DNA of 27,773 nucleotides from a virus (taxonomy: Duplodnaviria; Heunggongvirae; Uroviricota; Caudoviricetes): IMG/VR virus record IMGVR_UViG_2531839178_000008, positions 1 to 27,773 of that record; one strand, 5' to 3'. Position numbers and translations under genes: made by a program. Positions within the stretch are counted from its first letter, which is position 1. The number at the start of each line of letters is the position of its first letter. The notes beneath the pieces were generated by a model. That model saw only the letters and a program-made list of their open reading frames with translations, had not been told where the DNA came from and ran no database searches. Shown in pieces: positions 7,452-7,626 of this stretch.

Positions 7452-7602
7452 AGCTTTTCTCCTGTTTTTGTATACAGCCTGTTTACCCGAACAGGTTGTA
7501 GTTTGTTGGGAGAACCGCTATCCTTGGCTTGCGGTTGCCAAGGGTGTAGCGGTAGGTAATCCTCCATACACTTCGGAAATACTGGATATATTTCCGACCC
7601 AA

Positions 7603-7626
7603 AAAGCCCCGTTCCCTCGGGGCTTT
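7603..7626 (-). terminator. intrinsic terminator after the 63-aa gene
   Basis: AAAGCCCCG-TTCCCT-CGGGGCTTT, a 9-bp stem overlapping the stop codon at 7625..7627 and followed by a U-run on the leftward transcript. Confidence 0.55.

Follow-up and report, generated by a model that had tools for sequence, protein, structure and literature searches.

A hairpin-rich segment at positions 7452-7626 of the IMG/VR virus record IMGVR_UViG_2531839178_000008, a lambdoid prophage analyzed here over 27,773 nucleotides (the window), forms part of what is apparently a genuine, conserved and previously uncatalogued RNA element, namely the structured leader of a small open reading frame (ORF) on the minus strand. 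Comparison of related leaders supports a functional structured RNA region and no chance run of hairpins, and the leader probably switches translation of the small ORF on and off. The reading we favor, to which we give an even chance, is that of a 5′ leader belonging to a self-contained prophage module that combines a translational switch with an antisense RNA. An earlier note, made from the letters alone, had described the segment as a candidate small RNA (sRNA) or attenuator between a 63-aa gene and a 44-aa ORF. Its general idea that a structured RNA is plausible here is well borne out by the folding energy, by compensatory changes across many genera and by the regulatory anatomy. The 44-aa ORF is real as well; the segment is in fact the leader of that ORF, and its boundary had been drawn too narrowly.

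Folded as the minus strand, as the note had proposed, positions 7452-7626 reach -69.9 kcal/mol against -45.1 ± 3.5 kcal/mol for dinucleotide shuffles (z = -7.1, with 0 of 200 shuffles as good), and the plus strand gives z = -7.3 against its own dinucleotide shuffles. In agreement with the note, the segment is not filled by any ORF whose frame is conserved, and the three stem-loops that the note quoted are all present with their exact sequences. The terminator hairpin (7603-7626) and CCTGTT-tacccg-AACAGG (7478-7495) lie where they had been placed, whereas the extended hairpin CCGCTA-t-CCTTGGC...GCCAAGG-gtg-TAGCGG is found at 7515-7552 and not at 7528-7568, 13-16 nt off, and a fourth hairpin at 7574-7596 had been missed. 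In gene-strand order the element reads hairpin H0, hairpin H1, an invariant GGAG, hairpin H2, an invariant CUCC, hairpin H3, a Shine-Dalgarno sequence (SD), the small ORF (44 aa in this case) and a terminator (Table 1). H0 comes directly after the stop codon of the upstream gene (7625-7627); it was also picked up by a terminator scan and is followed by U runs on both strands, as expected of an intrinsic terminator.

Relatives of this leader are numerous. In 46 other Escherichia coli genomes a distant BLAST search found a copy of 7478-7626 with 71% identity that follows an unrelated ImmA/IrrE gene, together with a partial copy in the Yersinia phage YP3, and motif scans of viral, genome and metagenome collections brought the combined total to at least 49 distinct leaders, plus about a dozen more (the loose pattern used for metagenomes yielded mostly chance matches, which were filtered with a covariance model). 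From a seed alignment of 26 leaders RNAalifold recovers H0, H1, a GGAG:CUCC helix closing H2, and H3, and the pairs were counted on a hand-drawn version of this result. In the seed 92.3% of cells are paired, with double changes at 15 of 42 pairs and a covariation score of 0.154 against 0.077 in column shuffles (0 of 500 reach 0.154), and in members held out of it 91% of cells are paired, with double changes at 26 of 41 pairs (0 of 500 shuffles); as a caution against our reading, these counts are supportive and not formal probabilities, since the sequences are related, so that the shuffle controls overstate significance, and the held-out alignment (A3) was fitted to the model. When partners were slid out of register, pairing fell to only 30-48%. 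The covariance model built from the seed detects one full copy in the window and, in 637 kb of loci most of which are unrelated, genuine members only. The covariation in homologous prophages that the earlier note had wanted to see is thus present, and the hairpins are conserved.

All the helices have support from compensatory changes, and the individual hairpins differ in how they vary. The outer AAAG/CTTT pairs of H0 are kept in 25 of the 26 leaders, and four of its nine pairs show double changes. The base of the H2 stem covaries and its interior is variable, pair 82-117 being GC in 15 leaders, AU in six and GU in five. Fully compensated stems can be seen by eye for H1 (GGGTTG/CAACCC in L181, GTGAAGAGT/ACTCTTCAC in L201) and for H3 (GCAAATA/TATTTGC in L118). 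The pattern of substitutions favors the gene (minus) strand as the structured RNA, a structured complement being also compatible with it: at well-supported pairs G-U exchanges with G-C or A-U, three of them having 19, 7 and 5 G-U cells, and A-C is seldom seen, the A-C cells being confined to two poorly paired or misaligned columns. It must be said against this reading that the strand signal comes from the well-supported pairs only, and that over all modelled pairs the count of 36 G-U against 29 A-C cells does not decide the strand by itself.

Comparison shows that the 44-aa ORF is a genuine, conserved gene, with a match to phrog_21154 (function not assigned; E 2e-31). Its relatives share 11 invariant residues around the core V.V..Y.R.R.G..E.VR.H.RS.P, and the variable sites of the family are distributed 4/2/10 over the three codon positions. 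AlphaFold predicts a confident beta-hairpin for residues 19-38 (pLDDT >90). The same leader also precedes a second family of small ORFs, of 44-51 aa, basic and zinc-ribbon-like with five invariant cysteines, whose copies, by reading of the sequences, differ mainly at third codon positions; both families look coding. A visual impression that the two are homologous was dropped (hhalign probability 0.2). Pfam, NCBIfam and PADLOC hold no family for either small ORF, and PHROGs only phrog_21154 for the 44-aa one; profile searches of the PDB with the small ORFs gave nothing significant. Word-index protein searches returned three and two matches, and in an exhaustive HMMER search the 44-aa protein had 12 relatives, with no sign of a larger family around it. 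These small ORFs are mostly unannotated in existing records. One 44-aa-family relative (P0010) ends in GQLSFNFD, and the ImmA/IrrE proteins upstream of many copies (e.g., L003, 4148-4591) end in Q(L/M)SFDF(L/Y), an ending which presumably resembles the beta-clamp-binding motif QL[SD]LF.

The layout is common to the whole family and runs from the stop codon of a same-strand upstream gene through H0, a short G-rich linker, H1, GUAUGGAG, H2, GGUUCUCC, about 10 nt, H3 and the SD to the small ORF and a strong terminator, the small ORF being present in all copies but three truncated ones. An AUG conserved in GUAUGGAG was considered as the start of a leader peptide or mok-like frame and rejected, as the frame length is not conserved, no SD precedes it and two members have ACG. 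The genes upstream are of four unrelated two-gene sets: DUF3024 plus the 177-aa protein, XRE plus ImmA/IrrE, a HicB-like protein plus a 146-aa protein, and a protein of about 200 aa (with an XRE-like helix-turn-helix by eye, and no Pfam match) plus a 304-aa protein; the overlapped upstream proteins measure 146-304 aa. Hosts in the genome scan were Enterobacter, Atlantibacter, Erwinia, Providencia, Citrobacter, Kosakonia, Lelliottia, Cedecea and Kluyvera, and further copies were found in E. coli prophages and Klebsiella phages, with Stx phages among the carriers; a plasmid collection gave no leader match. Tandem arrangements occur. In L159 (1-520) a leader with a 44-aa-family ORF is directly followed by H0, H1, leader and a Cys-rich ORF, and in Providencia L077 (3963-4496) two Cys-rich modules with the same loop allele stand in tandem.

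In Rfam 15 no family covers 7439-7627 at the gathering score, and E values up to 10 give only sub-threshold terminator-type matches of 13-21 bits; the leaders of five related loci are likewise free of Rfam families. The same library did detect sok, STnc100, AgvB, C4, isrK and the cIII thermoregulator in the window or in related loci. A full-text literature search with the conserved RNA and peptide strings returned no relevant paper, and topical searches gave only known analogues.

How might such a leader work? Neither GGAG nor CUCC varies within the seed alignment, and CUCC has two complementary partners, the GGAG upstream of it and the SD. In minimum-energy folds it pairs with the SD (GGAGAA) in leaders of the window type and of the L072 type; several other types have it paired with the upstream GGAG or with some other segment, the cost of blocking GGAG being only 0-8 kcal/mol. 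The fifth pair of the GGAG:CUCC helix is G-U in 19 sequences and A-U in five. One distant member, L159, has changed GGAG, CUCC and SD together to GGAUUAACC, GGUUAUCC and GAGGUUAACC, by which the helix becomes GGAU:AUCC; its complete leader is predicted to pair the first two of these segments, and with the 5′ part removed the equivalent of CUCC pairs with the SD. All this suggests, from folding models, a three-part translational switch in which GGAG would serve as anti-anti-SD and CUCC as anti-SD. Pairing of CUCC (7509-7512) with GGAG (7562-7565) would leave the SD free, and pairing of CUCC with the SD (7457-7463) would close it. By computation the structured leader occludes the ribosome-binding site (RBS), as is expected of type I toxin-antitoxin loci. 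The module as a whole would consist of H0, structured leader, small ORF and terminator, attached 3′ of varied accessory operons, in the window behind the operon of cI, DUF3024 protein and 177-aa protein, just outside oL/pL. Sense transcripts from the upstream operon would have to read through H0 to arrive at the ORF, a route we propose because no conserved sense promoter was found inside the element in an alignment-wide scan of the 26 leaders.

The second half of the favored reading concerns the opposite strand. When sigma-70-like hexamers were scored at every alignment column on both strands, the best conserved promoter-like site was, by a clear margin, an antisense one, with TTG(y)(r)n-17-TAnnCT in 26 of 26 leaders. 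Its -10 letters T1 and T6 are invariant though their partners in H2 vary or often mismatch (11/26 and 8/26 cells unpaired), the CAA that gives the -35 TTG is invariant although H3 varies, and the 17-nt spacer itself is highly conserved (GGGAGAACC). At the other end, the A and T runs that flank H0 on either side are conserved. Truncated copies point the same way: two independent ones (L059/L106 and L180) lack H3 and the ORF and retain everything from H0 through CUCC, ending just past the -35 TTG. The YP3 copy is truncated further in. We put at about even odds that an antisense RNA of about 100 nt, predicted to fold into three hairpins, is made from the plus strand, and if any discrete small RNA exists the comparative evidence puts it there, antisense to the leader. 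Such an RNA would start at the plus-strand promoter (7496-7524), end at H0 and be complementary to the 5′ arm of H2, GGAG, H1 and H0, and not to CUCC or the SD. Its binding would lock the RBS shut because the anti-anti-SD is masked and the anti-SD left free to close the RBS, and cleavage of the duplex could follow. The H2 apical loop often holds TTGAC(A/G) (e.g., L007, L049 and L072) with no -10 at the right distance, and in L072 the hexamer TTGACG is common to the H2, H0 and H1 loops; a TTGACA-like H2 loop or H1 loop as a sense -35 failed on spacing.

Several points weigh against this two-part reading. The transcripts of both strands are here inferred; no sense promoter was found, and a window-type H0 with five U should stop most read-through. 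With about 7 of 12 consensus matches, the antisense promoter is weak and falls below the threshold of the scan tool, and its letters also lie inside H2 and H3, so that some of their conservation may be due to RNA constraint. There is almost no variation in the GGAG:CUCC helix, and so little covariation besides L159 and the G-U/A-U alternation. The alternative that survives best, though we consider it unlikely, is a purely cis-acting leader in which the minus-strand RNA alone is functional, with its switch set by folding kinetics, temperature, processing or a protein, with no antisense RNA and with the promoter letters kept by H2 and H3. All the structural and covariation evidence and the three-part SD logic apply to it equally, the antisense promoter is weak and missed by the consensus scan, and the conserved spacer would be explained by its anti-SD role and not by a promoter. 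It accounts poorly, however, for the invariance of T1 and T6 over varying partners and for two independent ORF-less copies that retain the element exactly through the -35; moreover, the LexA-like boxes described below would need a promoter, and no sense promoter is visible.

A feature on which the favored model does not depend, and which to that extent counts against it, is the similarity of the loops of H0 and H1 (e.g., L003 at 4001-4148, L049, L072 and L074). Of 37 distinct copies, 31 have at least 6 identical nt common to both loops in the same orientation, and up to 10 nt when two closing pairs are included. On average the common stretch measures 7.9 nt; for an H0 and an H1 taken from different alleles the figure is 3.7 nt. 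At least 10 loop alleles were recognized (CGCTAA, CTCTAA, CTGAGAA, CTGCAAA, CTGGAA, CTAGGA, GTGAGA, TTGGCA, TTGACG and CGTCAA), and they track neither the small-ORF type nor the upstream gene. Two allele pairs, TTGACG/CGTCAA and CTGCAAA/TTTGCAG, are reverse complements, flipped in both hairpins together. The window copy is an exception, with AGGGAA in the H0 loop and ATCCAG, the flip of CTGGAT, in that of H1. No consistent third copy or complement of the twin-loop sequence was found elsewhere in each locus. Two places are occupied by the element in 5 of 52 E. coli genomes.

Our best guess is that the twin loops are kissing sites of the sense/antisense pair, diversified against cross-talk between co-resident copies: identical H0 and H1 loops would be the sites of first contact, and many alleles would keep co-resident copies apart. 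A further proposal, which we hold to be rather doubtful, is that of a new class of sense/antisense riboregulator, in which the matched and fast-diversifying H0/H1 loop would be an "address" setting RNA-RNA (kissing) or RNA-protein specificity, so that copies coexist without cross-talk, and in which synthesis of the small protein would be coupled to the SOS response. Readings of the loops as CsrA sites, mimics of CRISPR repeats or of anticodon loops, or self-complementary loops were rejected, as each fits only some alleles. Nor do they resemble the dual-hairpin targets of ANTAR proteins, as the 6-7-nt loops vary freely (CGCTAA, TTGACG, CTGAGAA) without A1/G4 and H1 overlaps no terminator.

Repeated identical loop motifs are also typical of multi-site sRNAs and protein sponges such as RNAIII, RsaE and CsrB, which would fit a main product that is a trans-acting plus-strand sRNA (7531-7632), possibly SOS-controlled, using the conserved CCUCCAUAC or the twin loops on other mRNAs or on a protein, with the leader role secondary. 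The conserved promoter and bidirectional terminator, the LexA-like boxes at the -35 and truncated copies that keep only the promoter-terminator unit all agree with this. We nevertheless consider it quite improbable, since H3, CUCC and the co-variation of the SD lie outside the plus-strand RNA and are yet conserved or covarying, the small ORF is nearly always present, the G-U pattern favors the other strand, and the loops differ between copies, against a fixed host target.

The link of the leader to the SOS response, included in the favored reading, is a lead only, drawn from sequence matches. Two LexA-like boxes stand just upstream of the antisense -35. They are the only two CTGT-N8-ACAG sites (7462-7494) in the 27.8 kb of the window, where 0.33 would be expected, and the one at 7462-7477 is the best match in the window to a LexA matrix, at 17.1 bits against 12.4-27.7 for known sites, although that matrix was put together informally, which tells against leaning on it. 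In most other members H3 itself is a LexA-type site of 10-19 bits, ending one base from the antisense -35. Several copies adjoin umuDC, dinI or yedK (a yedK-like ORF is seen by eye in L072) and many follow ImmA/IrrE-XRE pairs. Also to be set against the lead, H3 would be palindromic in any case, and in five divergent members compensatory changes preserve the hairpin while the CTGT/ACAG core is lost; the core is for this reason not a defining feature. In the favored reading LexA-type boxes at the antisense -35 could tie the antisense RNA to SOS.

The same CTGT-N8-ACAG sites could belong to an element acting as DNA, either LexA operators or a recombination or cassette-exchange junction, the RNA folds being incidental. 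Indeed, the element marks the border between variable upstream cargo and a conserved module, and the H0 and H1 loops behave like the spacers of recombination sites, which must match, may have any sequence and can flip. Even so we judge it very improbable: G-U replaces G-C at several positions, which is meaningless in duplex DNA, and the long-range relation of GGAG, CUCC and SD is an RNA feature. With their unlike arms, H0 and H1 would not both be bound by one recombinase, and the two sites are about 30 bp apart with nothing between them and no third loop copy flanking the cargo.

Hardly credible, finally, is a free-standing minus-strand sRNA of the DicF kind, which the earlier note had drawn from the immunity region and its wealth of hairpins, or a set of mere terminator hairpins: up to E 10 the segment matches neither DicF nor any other Rfam family, it has no minus-strand promoter and no terminator between hairpins and ORF, it goes together with the downstream ORF, as its leader, both physically and in evolution, a discrete sRNA would probably come from the other strand, and conservation with covariation excludes terminators alone. 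A classical transcription attenuator was likewise rejected, as the alternative pairings concern the SD and nothing conserved upstream of H0 pairs with its arms to form an anti-terminator, the upstream sequences being four unrelated gene families.

Table 1. Features of the prophage leader module and of its surroundings in the window.
Feature	Position	Strand	Details
Full leader-family match, H0 to first codons of small ORF	7439-7627	minus	cmsearch 151.4 bits, E 1e-43; sole full copy in window
H0, bidirectional intrinsic terminator	7603-7626	both	GC-rich AAAGCCCCG-ttccct-CGGGGCTTT; A run before, T run after
H1	7574-7596	minus	CGGAAATA-ctggata-TATTTCCG; double changes at all 8 pairs in held-out members
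Invariant GGAG segment	7561-7569	minus	GUAUGGAGG; pairs with CUCC at 7509-7512
H2	7515-7552	minus	CCGCUACAC...GUAGCGG; inner stem CCUUGGC/GCCAAGG
Invariant CUCC segment	7508-7514	minus	UUCUCCC; unchanged in 26/26
H3	7476-7497	minus	ACAACCUGU-loop-ACAGGCUGU; pair 139-156 alternates C-G / U-G
LexA-box-like site 1, core of H3	7479-7494		CTGT-N8-ACAG
LexA-box-like site 2, between H3 and SD	7462-7477		sense CTGTATACAAAAACAG; 1 nt from site 1
Shine-Dalgarno sequence of 44-aa ORF	7457-7463	minus	AGGAGAA; direct reading
44-aa ORF	7317-7451	minus	MAHDVNRDDFIYEHDKPVYVRSYCRIRFGELEHVRQHFRSYPSC; WP_000929756.1; phrog_21154
Intrinsic terminator ending module	7277-7300	minus	AAACCCGGC-uuccgc-GCCGGGUUUUCUUU
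Putative antisense sigma-70 promoter	7496-7524	plus	TTGTAG (7496-7501), 17-nt spacer, TATCCT (7519-7524)
Putative antisense RNA, ~100 nt	7531-7632	plus	GGAG complement, H1', H0' as terminator, then UUUAUUCUUUU
177-aa gene (phrog_2602)	7625-8158	minus	split here into 121-aa and 63-aa ORFs
DUF3024 protein	8347-8688	minus	PADLOC candidate defence protein PDC-S43, E 7e-42
pL	7097-7069	minus	TTGACC-17-TATCTT
Operators ATAA-N6-TTAT	7072-7110 (two, oL); 9445-9507 (three, oR)

The prophage in the window is a close relative of the Stx1 phage SH2026Stx1, and a near-identical region occurs in only 6 of 5,426 complete E. coli genomes. On the minus strand, which carries all the relevant genes, the order is an XRE-type cI repressor, the DUF3024 protein, a 177-aa protein without assigned function, the hairpin segment, the 44-aa ORF, its terminator, a spacer of about 140 nt, oL/pL, nutL and N, the last annotated as the antitermination N peptide and preceded by a P22-type boxB, GCGCTGACAAAGCGC, at 6987-7001. 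The spacer between the module terminator and oL (7136-7276) contains no ORF and its sequence varies among prophages of different immunity. The hairpins lie at the distal end of the repressor operon, where the lambda map has rexB and tImm, and the genes in the rex position of this prophage may form a defence module. The 63-aa gene of the earlier note turns out to be the C-terminal fragment of the 177-aa gene, which has been split in the window by the loss of 1 nt from a T8 run (7823-7830). Fifteen related loci have the gene whole; in L022 it is split as well, and the split may mean a true pseudogene or an error in sequencing the homopolymer. The window contains ATAA-N6-TTAT exactly five times, against 0.37 expected, at a spacing of 24-25 bp; since this operator motif maps only to the oL and oR positions listed in Table 1, oL operators as the origin of the hairpin palindromes were ruled out. 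Rfam matches elsewhere in the window are the lambda cIII thermoregulator (5601-5659) and a c4-a1b1 / isrK / C4 antisense-RNA cluster (15806-16003), together with two tRNA genes (19263-19415).

If the favored reading is true, enterobacterial prophages, Stx phages included, carry a widespread RNA regulator that is not yet catalogued, one that would control two unstudied families of micro-proteins at the ends of immunity, defence and repressor-protease operons, possibly upon DNA damage. It would combine a compact anti-anti-SD / anti-SD / SD switch with a cis-antisense RNA, and its matched hypervariable loops raise the question of how RNA specificity alleles arise and stay in step. The leader family is in any case a candidate for Rfam and for small-protein annotation.

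Among known systems, the antisense RNAs of the Bacillus subtilis loci bsrG/SR4 and yonT/SR6 overlap the 3′ end of the mRNA and share a bidirectional terminator with it (PMC5848175). The putative antisense RNA described here would likewise run towards the upstream gene and share a bidirectional terminator; there, however, a small toxin gene is overlapped, and here it is accessory proteins of four kinds. The lambda cIII thermoregulator (RF01804) is also a phage leader whose two alternative structures make the RBS accessible or mask it, but it has 59 nt spanning the start codon and no antisense partner, in contrast to a leader of about 190 nt with four hairpins and another sequence. DicF, C4, IsrK, AgvB and STnc100 are, like this one, small structured RNAs of lambdoid prophages; none of them matches the segment, though the search located C4 and isrK at other positions of the window and, in related loci, AgvB, STnc100 and sok. 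In colicin operons dual SOS boxes stand nearly back to back upstream of the SD, after a clear sense promoter. The two LexA-type boxes of the window (7462-7477 and 7479-7494) are similarly placed just upstream of the SD, whereas no sense promoter is seen and the candidate boxes abut the antisense -35.

At type I toxin-antitoxin loci a short opposite-strand RNA pairs well upstream of the RBS; these loci are often prophage-borne, and tisB, dinQ and symE are LexA-controlled. Loci such as hok/sok, tisB/istR-1, zorO/orzO, dinQ/agrB and symE/symR likewise have a tiny ORF behind a long structured 5′ untranslated region, with the RBS sequestered by an upstream segment (examples in PMC3919570, PMC4041452, and PMC8621323). 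They differ in that the proteins predicted here are no hydrophobic membrane peptides, one being a basic, charged beta-hairpin and the other a five-cysteine, zinc-ribbon-like protein; in addition, no dedicated sense promoter is visible, the antisense RNA here is only inferred, and there is no sequence or Rfam relation. Although we do not file the leader in that class, its nearest analogues by working principle are the type I toxin-antitoxin loci with long leaders.

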